Shown in pieces: positions 1 to 8,264 of a stretch of DNA of 48,303 nt. The position numbers and the translations under genes are program-made. The stretch lies in the NCBI GenBank assembly GCA_945865695.1, contig CAMBFX010000003.1:1-48303 (forward strand). Direction: 5' to 3'. The first letter of the stretch is position 1. Every line of letters starts with the position of its first letter. The notes below the pieces were generated by a model. It saw only the letters and a list, made by a program, of their open reading frames with translations, was not told where the DNA came from and did not search any database. The stretch comes from Chryseobacterium gleum (GTDB lineage: Bacteria; Bacteroidota; Bacteroidia; Flavobacteriales_D; UBA2798).

Positions 1-1812
1 ATGGACTTCTTGGGATTAAAAACGTTGACGATTATTCGTGATGCATTAGCATTGATCAAGAAAAATAAAAATATTGATATCGATATTGATAAAGTTCCAT
101 TGGATGATGCAAAAACTTTAGAATTGTATCAGCAAGGTTCTACCACTGGAACATTCCAGTTTGAATCGGTTGGAATGCAAAAATATTTGAAGGAATTAAA
201 ACCCGATCAGTTTGAAGATTTAATTGCGATGAATGCCTTGTATCGTCCGGGACCGATTGAATATATTCCAAGTTTTATTAAGCGTAAACATAAATTAGAA
301 GAAGTTTCTTATGATTTACCAGAGATGGGCGAACTCCTCGAAGAAACGTATGGAATTACGGTTTACCAAGAGCAAGTAATGTTGCTCTCGCAAAAACTCG
401 CGAATTTTACTAAAGGCGATGCCGATACTTTGCGAAAAGCAATGGGTAAAAAGTTGATTGATGTTTTGAATAAAATGAAAAATAAATTTATCGATGGAGC
501 TGTTGCCAATGGGCATCCCGCAGATAAATTAGAAAAAATATGGACCGACTGGGAAGCATTTGCATCGTATGCTTTCAATAAATCACATTCTACTTGCTAT
601 GCTTTTGTAGCATTCCAGACTGCGTATTTAAAAGCACATTACCCTGCAGAATACATGGCTTCGGTATTAACGCATAACTTGAGTAATATCGATAATATTA
701 CTTTCTTCATGGAAGAATGTAAGCGAATGGGCATTCCTGTATTAGGACCAGATGTAAATGAAAGTGATTTTCAATTTTCGGTGAACGAGAAAAATGAAAT
801 TCGTTTTGGAATGGGCGCGATTAGAGGTGTTGGAGAAAATGCGGTAATTTCTATTGTAGAAGAAAGAGATAAAGCAGGAAAATTCAAATCAGTTTTTGAA
901 TTGGTGCGCAGAATAAATTTAAAAACGTTTAATAGAAGAACTTTTGAAAGCTTGGTTTTAGCAGGAGCATTGGATAGTTTCGGAATTAAACGTCCGGCTT
1001 ATTTCATGGAGGAAAGTGCAGGAAATAATTTCATTGGGAAAATATTAAAATATGGAAATTCCCATCAAGATGGAGAAAATTCCAATCAACAATCTTTATT
1101 TGGTGATTCGGTTGAAGTAGAAATAGCAGAACCAGCAGCACCACATAGCGAAGATTGGGGAACCTTAGAAAGATTGAAGAAAGAAAAAGAAGTAGTAGGA
1201 TTTTTTATTTCAGGACATCCATTAGATGATTATAAAATAGAGTTGAAACATATTTGTGAGGGAACATTAAGTGAATTGAATGAAGTGGGAACTGGTTTCT
1301 CCTCTAAAGTTTTTAAAATTGGTGGAATCATTTCTACTGTAGAACATCGCACCACCAAGACTGGAAAACCGATGGGATTTTTTACCGTGGAAGATTATCA
1401 TGCCACTACCCGATTTGTTTTGTTTGACGAACAGTATATGAAATTGCGCCACATGTTAGTGGAAAATACTTTTGTTTTCATTCATGGAAAAATGGAAAAA
1501 AGAAGATTTGGAAATATGGACGAACATGAATTCAAGATTTCTCAAATGGAAATTTTGGCATTGGTCAGAGAGAAATTAGCGAAGTGGCTGCAAATAAAAT
1601 TGGATTTGATTGATGTGAACGAAAAATTGATTGATGATATAGAAAAATTATTTACTGAAAATAAAGGAAAATGCAGAGTGAAATTTTCTGTTTCAGATTC
1701 TGCGGAACAGATTAAAATAGATTTGCCTAGTAACGGGAACGGGATTAATGTAACGAATGAATTGTTGTTTGCGCTGGAAGAAATGAAATTGGGATATGAG
1801 ATTTTGACTTGA
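1..1812 (+). CDS. dnaE: DNA polymerase III alpha subunit, C-terminal part (5'-truncated by window edge)
   Basis: Motifs MDFLGLKTLTII, GTFQFES, ALYRPGP, TYGITVYQEQVM, LRKAMGKK, YAFNKSHS, PDVNES, EKEVVGFFISGHPL and a C-terminal OB-fold region. The frame starts at an internal Met. Confidence 0.98.
   Translation: MDFLGLKTLTIIRDALALIKKNKNIDIDIDKVPLDDAKTLELYQQGSTTGTFQFESVGMQKYLKELKPDQFEDLIAMNALYRPGPIEYIPSFIKRKHKLEEVSYDLPEMGELLEETYGITVYQEQVMLLSQKLANFTKGDADTLRKAMGKKLIDVLNKMKNKFIDGAVANGHPADKLEKIWTDWEAFASYAFNKSHSTCYAFVAFQTAYLKAHYPAEYMASVLTHNLSNIDNITFFMEECKRMGIPVLGPDVNESDFQFSVNEKNEIRFGMGAIRGVGENAVISIVEERDKAGKFKSVFELVRRINLKTFNRRTFESLVLAGALDSFGIKRPAYFMEESAGNNFIGKILKYGNSHQDGENSNQQSLFGDSVEVEIAEPAAPHSEDWGTLERLKKEKEVVGFFISGHPLDDYKIELKHICEGTLSELNEVGTGFSSKVFKIGGIISTVEHRTTKTGKPMGFFTVEDYHATTRFVLFDEQYMKLRHMLVENTFVFIHGKMEKRRFGNMDEHEFKISQMEILALVREKLAKWLQIKLDLIDVNEKLIDDIEKLFTENKGKCRVKFSVSDSAEQIKIDLPSNGNGINVTNELLFALEEMKLGYEILT
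1776..1810 (+). repeat. dnaE 3'-end direct repeat, copy 1 (native gene end)
   Basis: GGAAGAAATGAAATTGGGATATGAGATTTTGACTT, identical (35/35) to 3396-3430. Confidence 0.95.
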
Positions 1813-1814
1813 GG

Positions 1815-1893
1815 ATCCTGACGAACTCGAGGACTCGTTGTCTGGATTAGTTCGACCATCGCTTTTCATTTCGATTGCATATCATGAAAATCG
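1815..1893. repeat. Two imperfect palindromes (REP-like hairpins) directly after the dnaE stop
   Basis: 1815-1847 ATCC-T-GAC...CGAG-GA-CTCG...GTC-T-GGAT nested stem. 1860-1893 CGCTTTTCAT...ATGAAAATCG stem (9/10 pairs). Neither has a poly-U tail. Confidence 0.55.
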
Positions 1894-1905
1894 GGTCTCA
1901 CTAAG

Positions 1906-1935
1906 ATGAAGTTGGGGTATGAGATTTTGACTTGA
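1906..1935 (+). repeat. dnaE 3'-end direct repeat, copy 2
   Basis: ATGAAGTTGGGGTATGAGATTTTGACTTGA versus 1783-1812: 28/30 identical, both differences synonymous (MKLGYEILT*). Confidence 0.92.
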
Positions 1936-2079
1936 GATTTTTTTTAACTCTTTTCGTATTTTGAATTATTTTAATGGTTAAATTTATTTATTATTTTCAC
2001 TCAATGAAAAGTCTAAATTAGGAGTAGCATTACACTTTATTTGAGTTAGAAAAAACATCGAAGAAAAAAATAAAAAGAA

Positions 2080-3069
2080 GTGAGTACAGAATTAATCATA
2101 TACCAAACCGAAGACGGTAAAACAAAAATACAAGCTCGGCTTAAAGATGAAACGGTATGGCTTACACAGGAGCAAATTGCTGTTTTGTTTCAGCGCGACC
2201 AATCTGTTGTTTCAAGGCATATTAACAATGTATTTAAAGAGAGCGAGTTAGACAAAAAAAGCAATATGCAAAAAATGCATAATGCAAATTCAGATAAACC
2301 GATTCTTTTGTATAACCTAGATGTGGTTATTTCCGTAGGTTACCGGGTAAAATCACTACGTGGTGTACAATTTCGCAAATGGGCTACAGCCTTGATAAAA
2401 GAATATATCATCAAAGGCTTTGCCATGAACGATGAGTTATTGAAAGAAGCAGGAGGTGGCAACTATTTTGATGAATTACTTGCACGAATAAGAGATATCC
2501 GTTCTTCAGAAAAAGTATTTTGGCGTAAAGTTTTAGATATTTATGCTACAAGTATAGATTATGAAGCTTCTGATTCACTTTCTCAAACATTTTTCAAAAC
2601 TATACAAAATAAAATGCACTGGGCAGCACACGGGCATACTGCTGCCGAAATAATACACCAAAGAGCTGATGCAGGAAAGCAACATATTGGTTTAACTCAT
2701 TTTAAAGGCAATACACCAACCAAACAAGAAACCGAAATAGCTAAGAATTATTTAAATAAACAAGAACTCGAAATTTTGAATCGGATGGTAACTGCATATC
2801 TAGAAGTAGCCGAAATACAAGCAATGAATAGACAGCCCATGTTTATGAAAGATTGGATTCTTCGCCTCGATGGCTTTTTAGCTATGACTGGCAAAGACAT
2901 ATTAGACCATACTGGAACAATTAGCCACGAAACAGCAATAGAAAAAGCGCATTTGGAATATGAAAAATACAAAAAACTGACCGGAAGCGAACTTAGTAAA
3001 GTTGAGCAGGATTTTGTAAAACAAATTGAAAATACAGCAAATCAATTAAAAAAAAGTAAAAAGAAATAA
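2080..3069 (+). CDS. rhuM: RhuM-family protein (virulence RhuM family), intact
   Basis: ETVWLTQ, YNLDVVISVGYRVKS..G.QFR.WAT, EY..KGFAMND, YFDELLARIRDIRSSEK, QNKMHWAAHGHTAAE, AKNYL motifs; GTG start. Confidence 0.9.
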   Translation: MSTELIIYQTEDGKTKIQARLKDETVWLTQEQIAVLFQRDQSVVSRHINNVFKESELDKKSNMQKMHNANSDKPILLYNLDVVISVGYRVKSLRGVQFRKWATALIKEYIIKGFAMNDELLKEAGGGNYFDELLARIRDIRSSEKVFWRKVLDIYATSIDYEASDSLSQTFFKTIQNKMHWAAHGHTAAEIIHQRADAGKQHIGLTHFKGNTPTKQETEIAKNYLNKQELEILNRMVTAYLEVAEIQAMNRQPMFMKDWILRLDGFLAMTGKDILDHTGTISHETAIEKAHLEYEKYKKLTGSELSKVEQDFVKQIENTANQLKKSKKK

Positions 3070-3131
3070 TTATTCCGAAATAGTTCTTTTAACATACGAT
3101 CAAACTGGACAAAGTTCTACAGACGAAAAAT

Positions 3132-3344
3132 TTAGATTTACCCGATGTGAATGAAAAACGGATTGATGATAAAGAAAAATTATTTACAGAACATAAAGGA
3201 AAATGCAGGGTGAAGTTTTCTGTTTCTGATTCTGCAGAACAGATTAAAATTGATTTGCCTTCTAATGGAAATGGAATTAATGTAACGAATGAATTATTGT
3301 TTGCGCTGGAAGAAATGAAACTTGGTTACGAAATATTAACTTAG
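3132..3344 (+). pseudogene. Duplicated dnaE 3' fragment (~70 codons), copy 3
   Basis: Translates to LDLPDVNEKRIDDKEKLFTEHKGKCRVKFSVSDSAEQIKIDLPSNGNGINVTNELLFALEEMKLGYEILT*, matching the dnaE C-terminus (1600-1812). The last 49 aa are identical despite 17 synonymous codon changes. Confidence 0.95.
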
Positions 3345-3364
3345 AAATATTAAGATTAATTATT

Positions 3365-3390
3365 TCCACCTACGCTAAAGCTACGGTGGA
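3365..3390. repeat. REP-like palindrome
   Basis: TCCACC-TAC-GCT-AA-AGC-TAC-GGTGGA: GC-rich hairpin with symmetric internal bulges, lying between dnaE-end copies 3 and 4. Confidence 0.6.
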
Positions 3391-3395
3391 CGAAG

Positions 3396-3432
3396 GGAAG
3401 AAATGAAATTGGGATATGAGATTTTGACTTAG
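3396..3432 (+). repeat. dnaE 3'-end direct repeat, copy 4
   Basis: 3396-3430 is identical to 1776-1810 and ends in TAG instead of TGA. Confidence 0.95.
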
Positions 3433-3543
3433 GGAATTAATCTAATTCTATGCATAAACTCAATTCACAAGACGTTCTATTTCGATCCCCCATTTGAAAT
3501 GAACCCTTCTGCAATCCAACTGTACTATATCTAAATTAGCCTT

Positions 3544-3927
3544 ATGAAAAATTTATACATCCTCCTATTATCGCTTATTTCAATAAATTCATTAGCACAA
3601 ACAGAGGTAATGAGCATGATGGGAATGAAGGAGCATGTTTTCCGCACACTTCAAGATGATTTTTTCTATGACTCAAAAGACACTATAGTTATTGAGCAAG
3701 AAAATGGAAATTTAGTGAATTATATTTTCAAAGGTGGAATAGTTGATCACGCTATTATTGTGAGAAGTGCCAATCAAATGACAACTACTTTAACTTGGCT
3801 AGAAACATTAACGAAAGAAGATGATTATTACTTTTATTCCATGAATGATCATCTTTATGGTCTATTTTTAATGGAATTAATGGATGAATCTTATTTTGGA
3901 TTATTTGTAACAAGAATGCCGGATTAA
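3544..3927 (+). CDS. Hypothetical secreted protein
   Basis: 127 aa, Sec signal MKNLYILLLSLISINSLA|Q; no recognised domain. Confidence 0.75.
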   Translation: MKNLYILLLSLISINSLAQTEVMSMMGMKEHVFRTLQDDFFYDSKDTIVIEQENGNLVNYIFKGGIVDHAIIVRSANQMTTTLTWLETLTKEDDYYFYSMNDHLYGLFLMELMDESYFGLFVTRMPD

Positions 3928-3977
3928 AGATTTAAAGTAGTGATATGATGTAGTTGAAAATGGCCATCATCTAATTT

Positions 3978-4730
3978 TTAATTCCATAATTCATAAAGTT
4001 TTATTTCATCTTCGTTGAGAAAATTCTTAGCAATTCCTACATCTGATTTCTTAACCGAAACTTTTCCTGCCTTATCAAAGGATTTCATACCCAATAAAGG
4101 CAATTCTGCATCTACTCTTCGATAAATCAATTCTGCAGCGGTTTGTTCACTAATTGCCCACAATAATTTATTCTGAATAATCTTAAAAAATTCAACAGTA
4201 CTTTCATCCTTCGGGCTGTAATCGATGCTCGTGGTAAAAATATCTTTTATTTTCTGATAGAAAAACCGTTCTGATAAACGTATTTCCCGAATACGTTCTT
4301 GCAATTCATTGAAATAATTCATTGAATTTCCTGATTTGAAACGGTCATCGTTAAGAGCAAAACCTTTAATAATATATTCTTTTAATCTTTGGGTAGCCCA
4401 GATTCGAAATTGAGTGCCTTGTGGCGATTTAACTCGATATCCTACAGAGATGACTACATCAAGATTGTATAAAAACACCTCATTTTCTTGAACTTTACCT
4501 TGTATTGCGCCATGTTGAGTGGTTGTTCGGGATTTCCGAACAACCACTTTTTCGTCTAATTCTCCTTCCGAAAATAATCCTTTAATGTGTTCGCTGATTG
4601 TAGACTTAGCTTTGCCAAATAATTCACACATTTGAGATTGTGTTAACCAAACAGTTTCATCTTCCAGTTTAACATCAATTTTGATATTTCCTTCTTGGTT
4701 TTGATAAATTAAAATTTCACCTGTATTCAT
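3978..4730 (-). pseudogene. RhuM-family protein, C-terminally truncated
   Basis: Same RhuM motifs (ETVWLTQ, YNLDVVISVGYRVKS, QNKLLWA...TAAE, AKNFLNEDEI). Ends abruptly at KLYELWN*, about 95 aa short of the paralog at 2080-3069. Confidence 0.8.
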
Positions 4731-4752
4731 TTATTAAAATATTGTTGTCAAA

Positions 4753-4760
4753 CAAAGTTA
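4753..4760 (-). promoter_or_regulatory. Putative Bacteroidota -7 promoter element
   Basis: TAACTTTG on the minus strand matches TAnnTTTG, ~23 bp upstream of ATG 4730; no clear -33 TTTG. Confidence 0.45.
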
Positions 4761-5075
4761 AAATATTAAATGAATGAGAATAGAAAAAACTAAATTTTGT
4801 AGTTGAGTTTATTCAAGAGAATTCAAAAGCAATTTTAACTAATCATTTTTTTTCTAGGTGAAACAAATCTCCATTCTTCAACTCATACTCCCTATTAAAC
4901 GCTTCCTGCGAAACTTTAAAATAATCGGCAAGGATGAGAATGGTTTATTTGGATAAACACAATTTAAATGGGAAAATTTACCGCAGAGAACGCAAAGGGC
5001 GCAAAGGGAAGACATGAATTCAAATTCTCAACTCCCCATCAAATTCACAATCAATTTCACCATGATATCCATTTC

Positions 5076-6011
5076 TTAGGGTTTGCTTTCTGCAATAAGG
5101 ATAGTGATTGCAACGAGTGCATTATCCGCAATATATTTGCTTCCATCAGATCGAAAAAGTTTTTTGTTTTTATCAAGGAAGAAAACAAATAATCCTGCTG
5201 CGATTCTTTTGTTTCCATCAGAGAAAGAATGATTCTTTACAACGAAATATAAAAGATGAGCGGCTTTTAAATAAATGCCTGGATATAATTCCTTCCTCTC
5301 AAAAGTTTGATAAATGGTTTCCAATGAACTTCTAAATGATTTATCTTTTTGATTACCGAAAAGTTGTCCAGCTTTGTGAGCTTCTCTCCAAATTTTAATT
5401 TGATCAATGGCTTCTTTGTAATTTAATTGAACTGTTTTTTCTTTTCCCGCATTAGGAATGCTTAATTTTTGATGATCATATTTATCTAATAAATCTAAAG
5501 CATGTGAATATTCGGTCACCACTTTTAATAATCCTATTGCTTCGTCACTCGAGAGTTCTTTTTTCTTTACTACATTTTCGAGTAACTTGATACTTTGTTT
5601 TAATTCATGAAGCTGTTCTTCTTTCGCTTTTAGTTTATCAATATTGACAGCGTAACCTTGGAGCAAATAATCTTTCAAACGTTGAGTTGCCCATTGACGG
5701 AATGCAATTCCTTGTTTGGAATTTACTCTATATCCCAATGAAATAATTACATCTAAATTATAATAATCAATAGTTCTTTCAACAGTTCTACCTGCCTCCT
5801 TTTGAACTGTTGCATTTTTTGCAACAGTTGACTTATAATTAAGCTCCTTTTCTTTGAATATGTTACTTAAATGCCTTGATATAACAGACTTATCCCTTGC
5901 GAATAATTGTGCTAATTGGTTTAATGAGAGCCAAACAGTTTCGCTTTCGAAACGAACTTCAACATGATTTTTTCCGTCCTTACTTTTAAAAATTTCTATT
6001 GCTTTTTCCAT
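5076..6011 (-). CDS. RhuM N-terminal domain + Fic/Doc domain protein (premature stop removes last ~16 codons)
   Basis: N-terminal ETVWLSL...YYNLDVIISLGYRVNS..G..FRQWAT, coiled-coil linker, Doc-type Fic motif HSFSDGNKR. Likely ATG at 6011. After TAA 5076-5078 the frame continues EMDIMVKLIVNLMGS* to 5028. Confidence 0.88.
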   Translation of the reverse strand: MEKAIEIFKSKDGKNHVEVRFESETVWLSLNQLAQLFARDKSVISRHLSNIFKEKELNYKSTVAKNATVQKEAGRTVERTIDYYNLDVIISLGYRVNSKQGIAFRQWATQRLKDYLLQGYAVNIDKLKAKEEQLHELKQSIKLLENVVKKKELSSDEAIGLLKVVTEYSHALDLLDKYDHQKLSIPNAGKEKTVQLNYKEAIDQIKIWREAHKAGQLFGNQKDKSFRSSLETIYQTFERKELYPGIYLKAAHLLYFVVKNHSFSDGNKRIAAGLFVFFLDKNKKLFRSDGSKYIADNALVAITILIAESKP

Positions 6012-6239
6012 ATTTTTCAAATGTTTCAGAGGTGCTCGCAATTTGCGACCACCTCCATTAATAGGTTAATTTTATTAGTAATAAATTAGATTAAATTGTT
6101 TAATAATTTTATAAAATCTATTAAACTCTGGATTTGGGATTCGATAAACAAAATATCCCTTTTCAATTCTGATGATGTAAAAATAAAATGGATTTTTGAG
6201 AAGAAAAAATAAAACTAAATTTTGTAGTCGAAATAAAAA

Positions 6240-6584
6240 CTACTCTTCCTCAATCACCGTAAATTTCTCTGGAGCCACATAACTCAATTCTTCAGAAACG
6301 AAAAAAATGGTATTTGATTTTTGAATAGCGAAAACTTTGTAATTGTACACGGTATCAACAACGGCATTTCCAATTTGGTTTCCATGAGCATAGCGTTCTA
6401 CTACTTTCCTGAAATATTTGGTAGGTTCATAATAATATAAAACTTGTTCATCTCCGTTTTGCTCCACCTTATTAGGTTTACCTTTTTTTGAAAGTAAAGA
6501 GTCGATTGATTTTCCTTCCCAACGTTGGATGCTGCATCCGATTAATAATAATGAGGAAAGCAGAATGAGGATAATTGTTTTCAT
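6240..6584 (-). CDS. Hypothetical small lipoprotein
   Basis: Lipobox LLLIG|C after a hydrophobic signal; KGKP...E...VLYY segment reminiscent of SmpA/OmlA-like folds (weak). Confidence 0.75.
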   Translation of the reverse strand: MKTIILILLSSLLLIGCSIQRWEGKSIDSLLSKKGKPNKVEQNGDEQVLYYYEPTKYFRKVVERYAHGNQIGNAVVDTVYNYKVFAIQKSNTIFFVSEELSYVAPEKFTVIEEE

Positions 6585-6950
6585 ATTAAAAGCGTGTTGG
6601 TGACAATTAATTTAACCAAACCTAATCCAACAAGTTTCGTTTCTCACTTTTTTGGAGCTATTTTAAAAATAGATGTTAAATAACATGAACGGCGTTATAA
6701 ATCATCGTCCAAATTAAATAGCAAAGTTTATTAGATAGCAAATTGACAATTATGCAAATTCTATTGGTTGAGTGTTTTAAAATTCAATATTAAATCAATT
6801 AAATTCTGGATATAAAATCCATTCCATTAATATTTCGCCACTCATTTTCGCTGGATTTCTACCTATATCCCGATAAAATACCACTCATGTAAATAAATAG
6901 CCTATTTGCTTTCCATTTTCTATTTTCGCATTCTAAAATTTTACCTATTT

Positions 6951-8264
6951 ATGAAACTAACTCATTACCTGTGTTTATCGGGATTAGCAATGCTAAGCAT
7001 CGGTGTTTCTGCACAGAAAATTGAATTTCAGGAATACGACCTGAAAAATGGTTTGCATGTCATTTTACATGAAGATCATACAACTCCCATCGTTACTGTA
7101 TCTGTATTGTATCATGTGGGTTCAAAAAACGAAGATCCAAAACGTACAGGATTCGCACATTTTTTCGAGCATTTAATGTTTGAAGGTTCTGCGAATATCG
7201 GTCGTGGCGAATACGGAAAAATTATCGAAGAAAATGGTGGTGTTTTAAATGCCAACACTTCTTTTGATAGAACCTATTATTATGAAATTCTTCCTTCCAA
7301 TCAAATGGAATTAGGTTTGTGGATGGAAGCAGAAAGAATGCTTCAGTTAAAAGTTGATTCTGTAGGTGTAGAAACACAACGCGGTGTAGTAAAAGAAGAA
7401 TTAAATCTTCGTGTATTGAATCAACCTTATGGAAGTATCCTTCAGCAAACATTCAGTCACGCTTTTAAAGTTCATCCTTATCGTTGGACACCCATCGGTG
7501 ATGCGCAATACATCAATGCGGCCACCTATGAAGAATTCATGGATTTTTACAAAACATTTTATGTTCCTAATAATGCAACTATTTCTATCGCGGGAGATTT
7601 TAAACCTGAAGACGCAAAAAAATGGATTGAGAAATATTTTGGACCGATTCCAAAAGGAACAAAAGCAATTCCTCGTCCGAAAGAAGTAGAGCCTAAGCAA
7701 ACTTCTGAAATCAGAGATACTGTTTATGATAATATCCAATTACCAGCTGTAATCATGGGTTATCATATTCCAGGCCAAGGAACACCTGATTATTATGCAG
7801 TGAATATGTTGGCGCAATTATTATCACAGGGAGAAAGTTCAAGAATCGCTAAAAATGTAGTGGACAAACAACAAAAAGCGATTTTCGCAGGAGCCTTTCC
7901 ATTGCCTTCAGAAGATCCTGGATTGACTTTGATGTTTGGAATTTGTAATATGGGAATTCAACCAGATGATTTGGAAAAAGCAATCGGTGCTGAAATTGAA
8001 AAAACACAAACAGAATTAATCAGTGATGAAGAATTTCAGAAATTGAAAAATCAGATTGAATCGGATTTTATTACTTCTAATTCAAGTATGGCTGGAATTG
8101 CAGAAAGTTTAGCTAACTATGAAGTTTATTTCGGTGATGCTAATCTTATCAATACAGAAATCGATCGTTACATGAAAGTAACGAAAGAAGATATTCAACG
8201 TGTAGCAAAAGAATATTTCAGAAAAGAAAATCGCGTTGTTTTATATTATTTACCTAAACCATAA
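6951..8264 (+). CDS. M16 family zinc peptidase (pitrilysin/insulinase), catalytic subunit
   Basis: Inverted zinc motif HFFEH, NANTSFDRT, FY.PNNA...IAGD; signal MKLTHYL...VSA|Q from ATG 6951. Confidence 0.95.
   Translation: MKLTHYLCLSGLAMLSIGVSAQKIEFQEYDLKNGLHVILHEDHTTPIVTVSVLYHVGSKNEDPKRTGFAHFFEHLMFEGSANIGRGEYGKIIEENGGVLNANTSFDRTYYYEILPSNQMELGLWMEAERMLQLKVDSVGVETQRGVVKEELNLRVLNQPYGSILQQTFSHAFKVHPYRWTPIGDAQYINAATYEEFMDFYKTFYVPNNATISIAGDFKPEDAKKWIEKYFGPIPKGTKAIPRPKEVEPKQTSEIRDTVYDNIQLPAVIMGYHIPGQGTPDYYAVNMLAQLLSQGESSRIAKNVVDKQQKAIFAGAFPLPSEDPGLTLMFGICNMGIQPDDLEKAIGAEIEKTQTELISDEEFQKLKNQIESDFITSNSSMAGIAESLANYEVYFGDANLINTEIDRYMKVTKEDIQRVAKEYFRKENRVVLYYLPKP

Follow-up and report, generated by a model that had tools for sequence, protein, structure and literature searches.

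What kind of event leaves the end of an essential gene standing four times in a row on a bacterial chromosome? This question is raised by the 48,303-nucleotide (nt) stretch analysed here (the window), which forms the start of contig C3 in the genome bin of Chryseobacterium gleum assembly GCA_945865695.1. The 3′ part of dnaE is followed there by three further copies of its last codons, and a gene of the rhuM family lies among them. The bin (hereafter G000) comprises 3.34 Mb in 264 contigs and is 96.6% complete with contamination of 2.83%; its sister species G001 is the sole other species of the genus that was compared. We favour, with moderate confidence, the explanation that the four ends are one live dnaE end and three scars of serial gene gain, produced by homologous or illegitimate recombination of the host and not by a dedicated integrase. 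Scars of this kind are already known, and the one described here is unusually layered.

A degenerate pattern for the peptide MKLGYEILT plus a stop codon matches the window at 1783-1812, 1906-1935, 3315-3344 and 3403-3432, always on the forward strand, and has no match in 100 dinucleotide-preserving shuffles. The four coding ends that a sequence-only reading of this DNA had placed at 1812, 1935, 3344 and 3432 are therefore genuine. That reading also proposed a perfect 35-bp repeat shared by copies 1 and 4, and this too is present, since positions 1776-1810 and 3396-3430 are identical and start 1620 nt apart. A general repeat search returned four copies of a 40-nt family, which begin at 1776, 1899, 3308 and 3396. 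When a 28-mer of the tail was searched against the whole assembly with up to three mismatches, it gave three matches, all at the dnaE locus, and the backward control gave none. The stop codon is TGA followed by G in copy 1 (the live end) and copy 2, and TAG in copies 3 and 4 as well as in G001.

Comparison with the sister species indicates which of these ends is the oldest. The dnaE gene of G001 terminates with TAG, and the sequence immediately behind it is the flank found after copy 4 in the window; window positions 3396-4009 align with this region (locus L011, 2559-3171) at 95.3% identity over 614 nt. Neither the rhuM gene located between the repeats (2080-3069) nor the insertion sequence (IS) remnant beside it was found anywhere in G001. 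Because G001 has this empty site, copy 4 is the ancestral end and positions 1811-3395 (1585 nt) are an insertion, as had been proposed for the 1.6-kb block between copies 1 and 4. The insertion comes with a duplication, 35 bp long, of the target sequence of the host itself. Copies 1 and 4 agree with each other at 35 of 35 positions, each agrees with the G001 target at 32 of 35, and the two share letters that are specific to G000.

The inner copies have other origins. Copy 2 matches G001 at 30 of 31 positions and exhibits the ATGAAGTTGGGG form, a haplotype distinct from that of the live end, which we infer to be the form carried by a diverged population in metagenome run X9 (described below). 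Copy 3 had been taken for a short scar and is in fact a displaced dnaE fragment of 215-250 nt, with 215 nt at 86% identity to positions 1596-1810 and a likeness at the protein level that reaches back to approximately 3096. It is a mosaic of three parts. The first ~40 nt are very diverged, and the body shares ~90% identity with the live end and lies near the X9 type. The tail represents a third type, in which 7 of the last 28 nt are unlike those of the live tail, always synonymously. Over the 65 codons of copy 3 there are 33 nucleotide changes in 217, yet only 3 amino-acid changes. All four copies encode MKLGYEILT, and alternative protein tips are thus absent.

Given these characteristics, the extra ends stem from functional dnaE genes of three or more lineages and are not copies of a protein-binding site. 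Since the three extra ends represent three dnaE haplotypes, including the copy 3 tail with its 7 synonymous differences in 28 nt, at least three events involving DNA of different lineages are indicated. The earlier proposal of successive insertions anchored on the dnaE terminus is supported by these distinct haplotypes. The dnaE genes of G000 and G001 also diverge unevenly (6 differences in positions 1201-1500 and 14 in 1701-1800), which fits recombination in the 3′ part of the gene.

Metagenomes provide a further form of the locus. The stretch is present, wholly or partly, in twenty rows of metagenome runs (lake, freshwater, aquatic and estuary) that come from seven studies, and our read evidence consists of Logan contigs (k=31, which break at the 35-nt repeat) of four runs, named X5, X8, X9 and X11. 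The population in X9 and X11 is diverged from that of the window, with 111 of 1664 dnaE letters (6.7%) differing in X9. Its rhuM block differs at 33 of 1291 letters (2.6%), and this lower divergence suggests that the block was transferred after the lineages had split. In both runs the block is a single 1292-nt contig (1906-3196) that begins exactly 30 letters ahead of the copy 2 terminus and stops within copy 3. A contig of 176 nt, corresponding to 3167-3342, has approximately twice the depth (50.9 in X9 and 28.8 in X11) of the adjoining dnaE contig (24.5 and 14.3) and rhuM contig (26.9 and 10.9), the flank contig begins at 3401, and spacer 1 is nearly without cover. The contig ends and depths thus point to a simple form of the locus, consisting of dnaE, a repeat of at least 176 nt, rhuM, the same repeat, and the flank.

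An alignment of relatives had been suggested as a means of finding variable cargo and empty sites, and three forms have emerged from it: empty in G001, simple in X9 and X11, and nested in G000. The locus provides a natural series in co-occurring lake populations: the site is empty in one form, holds a simple insert with a long duplication in another, and is nested, with three gene-end haplotypes, in the third. A search with the DnaE C terminus across 12 genomes of the family revealed a second match in G000 only, the tail pattern was found among species-representative genomes only in G001, and it had no match in the IMG/VR viral contigs. No dnaE fragment was present beside rhuM relatives at 80 metagenome loci, where the best match was 80% identical and records of near identity may be missing. 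In the genomes searched, this genus is the only one in which the dnaE end acts as an insertion site. A limited, title-level literature search retrieved no relevant paper on the dnaE end as an integration site.

The route that we envisage would begin with DNA from related but diverged lineages, bearing a dnaE 3′ end and the DNA behind it, that recombines with the dnaE end already in place. This would probably proceed either through a circular intermediate or by crossing over between homologous dnaE sequences, the latter combined with an illegitimate join. The incoming end would complete the essential gene and the resident end would be displaced downstream, leaving an insert between long target duplications that vary in length and span the stop codon. 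The rhuM unit, already hit by an IS that later decayed, may first have entered with a duplication of ~215-250 nt, and the same unit together with hairpin-bearing spacers may later have moved into the G000 lineage to yield the perfect 35-bp duplication. Every copy is in frame through its stop codon, presumably because of selection for an intact DnaE C terminus. Two published models, with which we compare the locus at the end, fit because the repeat length is variable, the outer repeat is the host target, the inner copies are diverged and no recombinase gene lies in the window.

Several points count against this explanation. Three breakpoints lie close together, 25-48 nt ahead of the stop codon (the copy 2 edge at −32, the copy 4 edge at −37, and the mosaic point of copy 3), which is unexpected for random illegitimate joins and is what a site-specific core would give. 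The two short intervals, 51 and 88-93 nt long, resemble decayed elements flanked by attachment (att) sites, as expected from tandem accretion. A repeat of 35 nt is close to the minimum for RecA-dependent recombination. The simple form in X9 is deduced from contig ends and depths, and was not read as sequence. The bin is incomplete, and an unlinked or unbinned integrase is possible. Circle, tandem and within-population empty-site junctions were not seen: in the contigs of X5, X8, X9 and X11, no joint skips 1811-3430 and none leads backward from spacer 3 to spacer 1, although contigs at k=31 are unable to show such joints.

The first of these points lead to the principal rival explanation, which we regard as unlikely: the dnaE tail could be the attB site of an integrase that is located elsewhere or has been lost, with serial elements having decayed to cis-mobilizable remnants bounded by att repeats. 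Direct repeats of a gene 3′ end, combined with an empty site in a relative, form a classic integrase signature, and arrays of this kind are known (PMC5704250, PMC3146451, as far as the consulted portions of these papers describe them). The clustered breakpoints agree with such an origin, and the 51- and 88-93-nt spacers could be remnants of the elements. In the portions of those papers that we draw on, covering ICESt1-type elements and the ssrA islands of Dehalococcoides, repeated 3′ ends of essential genes likewise mark successive insertions, and some units lack an integrase. The present locus differs from them in that no cognate integrase was found, no core of constant length is evident, and the units measure 0.05-1.4 kb instead of several kb, with two of them devoid of genes.

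The search for a recombinase bears on this rival in both directions. Among the 44 open reading frames (ORFs) of the window, which were scanned with Pfam, there is no integrase or transposase gene, and genome-wide scans with PF00589, PF00239, PF00665 and PF01797 gave no match on contig C3. The statement in the sequence-only reading that the window lacks such functions is hence correct for genes, with the reservation that a 95-nt non-coding IS-end remnant lies at 1940-2034. In favour of the rival, other contigs of the bin do carry three tyrosine recombinase genes (on C44, C64 and C206) and three serine recombinase genes (on C5, C160 and C217). However, two of the three tyrosine recombinases (C44 and C64) are Xer-sized, and none of the six genes adjoins a tail-like sequence in this incomplete bin. 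Matches to rve occur on C5, C56, C160 and C89, the last below the Pfam cut-off, and Y1 transposase matches occur on six other contigs, with four to six Y1_Tnp genes (similar to REP-associated tyrosine transposases, RAYT, or to IS200) in the genome. The C206 recombinase adjoins a rhuM paralogue, and this pair was considered as a lead and rejected, given that it has no flanking repeats and is 90% conserved in G001, and that none of the 80 rhuM loci carries a relative of the recombinase.

Other observations count against site-specific accretion. No second copy of the tail that could represent attP was found in the genome, in the viral contigs or in the species genomes. The comparison of the repeats to attL and attR is not supported, because they reveal no fixed att core and measure 32, 35 and 215-250 nt in G000 against 176 nt or more in the form of X9 and X11. 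Indeed, the same rhuM unit would be bordered by a 35-nt duplication in one host and by repeats of at least 176 nt in the other. Moreover, the copies diverge in the manner of coding dnaE sequence, with only synonymous changes in the tail, unlike a core that is bound by a protein. By eye, the 35-mer has no clear dyad symmetry, and no further look was taken for dif/Xer-type or integron attC-type sites.

A bolder version of the explanation that we favour, which we consider quite improbable, would make the rhuM unit a minimal, recombinase-less mobile defence cassette that uses the end of an essential gene as a portable homology handle. Such a unit would form a circle through its dnaE ends, pass between co-occurring lineages, and re-enter at dnaE by means of host recombination. 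If true, it would exemplify the ‘virus-like life cycle’ that was once proposed for restriction-modification units and never shown, and the breakpoints ~35 nt before the stop codon would mark either a preferred crossover zone or the action of an unrecognised host-encoded recombinase. Beyond the natural series described above and a caution for annotators given below, the finding is an ordinary recombination scar that leaves the knowledge of dnaE unchanged.

Transposable elements offer another route, which we judge to be very unlikely. The duplications would in this case have been made by the IS whose remnant occupies 1940-2034 or by a system of repetitive extragenic palindromes (REP) and Y1 transposases. 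The IS-end remnant is located directly after copy 2, a REP-like palindrome lies in spacer 3, and the genome does have Y1_Tnp genes. However, the remnant is inside the insert and not at its borders, and the repeats are gene ends of different lineages that were not copied in place. Neither an IS with an HTH_Tnp_1 OrfA nor a Y1 transposase is known for target duplications of 30-250 nt.

Two sets of contigs bear on the remaining alternative, in which the assembler stitched together co-occurring strains, or a small circle and an empty chromosome, at the 35-bp repeat. The bin holds two dnaE 5′ contigs, C130 (7969-8900) and C213 (3507-4438), which share 91.6% identity and each overlap C3 at its start by 149 nt; because both versions end with the same 149 nt, the bin mixes two related populations at dnaE, and the contamination value noted above points in the same direction. 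A contig of 934 nt from run X5, which belongs to another study, matches 1645-2578 with no differences; it starts in dnaE, crosses copy 1, spacer 1 and copy 2 and reaches rhuM, which confirms the left junction. A contig of 1261 nt from run X8 matches 2189-3449 with one difference and includes rhuM, copy 3, spacer 3, copy 4 and 19 letters of flank, fewer than the 31 letters of a full bridge, and it supports the right junction. Since each copy moreover has unique flanks, so that all four must exist as DNA, an assembly artefact is scarcely credible.

With these alternatives in mind, we return to host recombination as the favoured source of the scars and describe what lies between and behind the dnaE ends (Table 1). 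The sequence-only reading regarded the locus as a cassette array, a view that is not sustained because only one of the three intervals between the ends carries a gene, rhuM; the others are non-coding, hairpin-bearing spacers of 88-93 and 51 nt. Within 1811-3395, rhuM is the sole ORF with a Pfam family match. It is not a restriction-modification gene, and no such gene is present at the locus. The intact relative of the IS remnant is located at the end of contig C76, where its orfA matches HTH_Tnp_1 with 27.5 bits.

Table 1. Features of the window at and behind the dnaE terminus
Feature	Position	Strand	Remarks
dnaE, last 603 codons (contig begins inside gene)	1..1812	+	Live end, TGA at 1810-1812; Pfam DNA_pol3_finger, HHH_6, OB fold; protein 97% to G001 dnaE
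Copy 1, left arm of perfect 35-bp direct repeat in live dnaE	1776..1810	+	GAG follows, as at copy 2
Spacer 1, non-coding, hairpin of ~60 nt	1811..1903	+	Likeness to intergenic stretch of G001 contig C138
Copy 2, 32-nt dnaE end of another haplotype (ATGAAGTTGGGG...)	1904..1935	+	Stop TGA
IS-end remnant (terminal repeat and first orfA codons, start codon lost)	1940..2034	-	85% over 95 nt to C76:15051-15290
rhuM, intact, 329 aa, only cargo gene between the repeats	2080..3069	+	Pfam Virulence_RhuM (PF13310) 2.8e-104; PADLOC PDC-S05 1.2e-146, full length
Copy 3, displaced dnaE 3′ fragment	3096..3344	+	Stop TAG; mosaic
Spacer 3, 51 nt, non-coding	3345..3395	+	24-nt REP-like palindrome at 3366-3389
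Copy 4, ancestral dnaE end	3396..3432	+	3396-3430 is right repeat arm, then TAG; colinear with G001 dnaE end and flank
Conserved gene, 127 aa, no known family	3544..3927	+	First gene after dnaE in empty-site genome G001
Second RhuM-family gene, C-terminally cut short, 250 aa	3978..4730	-	Segment 3998-4874 replaced by 28 nt in G001 and X9/X11
RhuM-N/Fic fusion gene	5076..6041	-	Pfam; PADLOC PDC-S23 1.2e-125; present and more diverged in G001; replaced by other sequence in X9/X11

Spacer 1 resembles an intergenic stretch that follows an MBOAT gene on contig C138 of G001 (window 1816-1904 against L104 1498-1588; 75% identity, E-value 4.7e-8). The counterpart of this ~90-nt hairpin element in G001 keeps the same fold and long stem with changed stem letters. 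The element is single-copy in both G000 and G001, and it is missing from the orthologous MBOAT site of G000. We considered whether it is a multi-copy mobile element and rejected this idea, given one homologue in G001 and only weak, short matches in 401 genomes of the order.

The palindrome in spacer 3 belongs to a 24-nt family (..ACC...GCT.AAGC...GGT..) with eight loci in the genome, which exhibit compensatory changes in the outer stem. Besides the copy in the window, these are located at C171:4212, C38:3898, C1:26471, C15:19613, C174:1360, and C210:2940 and 3018. The copy on C171 sits in an apparent open coding frame. As a separate observation, a REPtron-like arrangement is evident on contig C126 of G000 (L121; 2284-2465, 2457-2906 and 3166-3358), wherein a Y1-transposase gene lies between 194-nt direct repeats of palindromic units. 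Rfam, run in E-value mode on positions 1-7000, gave no matches, a scan of the window for transfer RNA and transfer-messenger RNA genes found none, and a scan of positions 1500-4200 for sigma-70 promoters and terminators revealed nothing above shuffled sequence. Those who annotate such regions should note that small ORFs, such as that at 3147-3344, can be displaced gene ends.

Genes of the RhuM family also characterize the islet behind dnaE, where three of the five RhuM-domain genes of the genome are found within 4.2 kb. The absence of most of the second rhuM from G001 is a deletion in G001 and not a gain in G000, because ~20 nt of the gene's 3′ end remain there. As this difference and that at the Fic gene show, the islet loses genes as well as gaining them. 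A motif, CTAAATTTTGTAGT, recurs upstream of RhuM-family genes, at 4777-4806 and 6202-6231 of the window and at 3310-3329 of L122, and we take it to resemble the Bacteroidota −7 promoter box TAnnTTTG. The islet genes match the PADLOC candidates PDC-S05 and PDC-S23, and on this basis both the cargo and its neighbours can be classed as RhuM-family candidate defence genes. RhuM-like proteins have been proposed, in the part of PMC3710099 that treats them, to be toxin domains in restriction-modification neighbourhoods.

Comparable scars occur at other sites, in line with the favoured explanation. On contig C110 (L119), beyond a 2.4-kb islet with a DUF559 gene and small ORFs, there is an 85% identical copy of the first ~400 nt of a class-V aminotransferase gene (features at 2170-3441, 5851-6330 and 6435-7409 of L119), and beside this islet a RhuM-N/Fic gene is located between perfect 52-nt direct repeats of REP-like units. 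Among the 50 of the 80 metagenome rhuM loci with at least 600 nt on both sides, flanking direct repeats of at least 20 nt occur at six (160, 136, 84, 53, 36 and 22 nt, with no empty-site genomes for comparison), against one of 50 for a reversed-flank control. The 53-nt repeat is the N-terminal repeat of a paralogue. In four of these loci (L029, L033, L049 and L060) a single rhuM is located at an unrelated site with repeats of 84, 136, 160 and 36 nt, respectively, and units of ~1.36-1.66 kb.

Several known systems resemble the dnaE locus in part. Prophages such as phage 21 and e14, which insert in icd, bring along a new 3′ end for the gene that they target. As with the route that we envisage for dnaE, a long 3′ stretch of the target travels with the incoming DNA, and the displaced host end stays behind as a pseudo-end. 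Unlike the dnaE insert, these prophages bear an integrase and use a single defined crossover site.

Insertion with long target duplication was reportedly described by Nobusato and colleagues in 2000, and is one of the two models that fit best. Defence genes inserted with target duplications that are long and variable, often spanning a start or stop codon and without a mobility gene, are the subject of a later study (Furuta, Abe and Kobayashi 2010, PMC2853133), whose relevant sections state no mechanism for such insertion. How single defence genes enter conserved sites without a mobility gene has been an open question since that type of insertion was recognised. The dnaE locus resembles the cases in those sections of PMC2853133 in several respects. 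A small defence-type unit is absent at the same site in a relative; the direct repeats exceed 30 bp, are copies of a single-copy target and span the stop codon, and the target gene remains whole; the repeat is unique in the genome and variable in length; and the insert has no mobility gene, with the caveat of the 95-nt non-coding IS-end remnant. The differences are that the cargo here is of the RhuM family instead of restriction-modification genes, that the insert is nested and holds two older gene-end copies of other lineages, and that the target is the dnaE end.

The second model derives from Rhs gene arrays (Jackson et al. 2009, PMC2935791), where displaced gene ends of variable length have been attributed to incoming ends that undergo homologous recombination by way of a circle and drive the old end downstream. 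To the extent that the relevant part of that paper describes these arrays, a complete gene precedes a row of its own 3′ fragments, which vary in length and each have different DNA behind them. The dnaE locus has the same layout: the first displaced fragment is followed by the IS remnant and rhuM, the second by spacer 3 and the third by the ancestral flank. In contrast to the Rhs genes treated there (PMC2935791), the dnaE fragments are much shorter and number only three, and the ends encode the same peptide, such that it is the DNA behind the gene that varies and not the tip of the protein.

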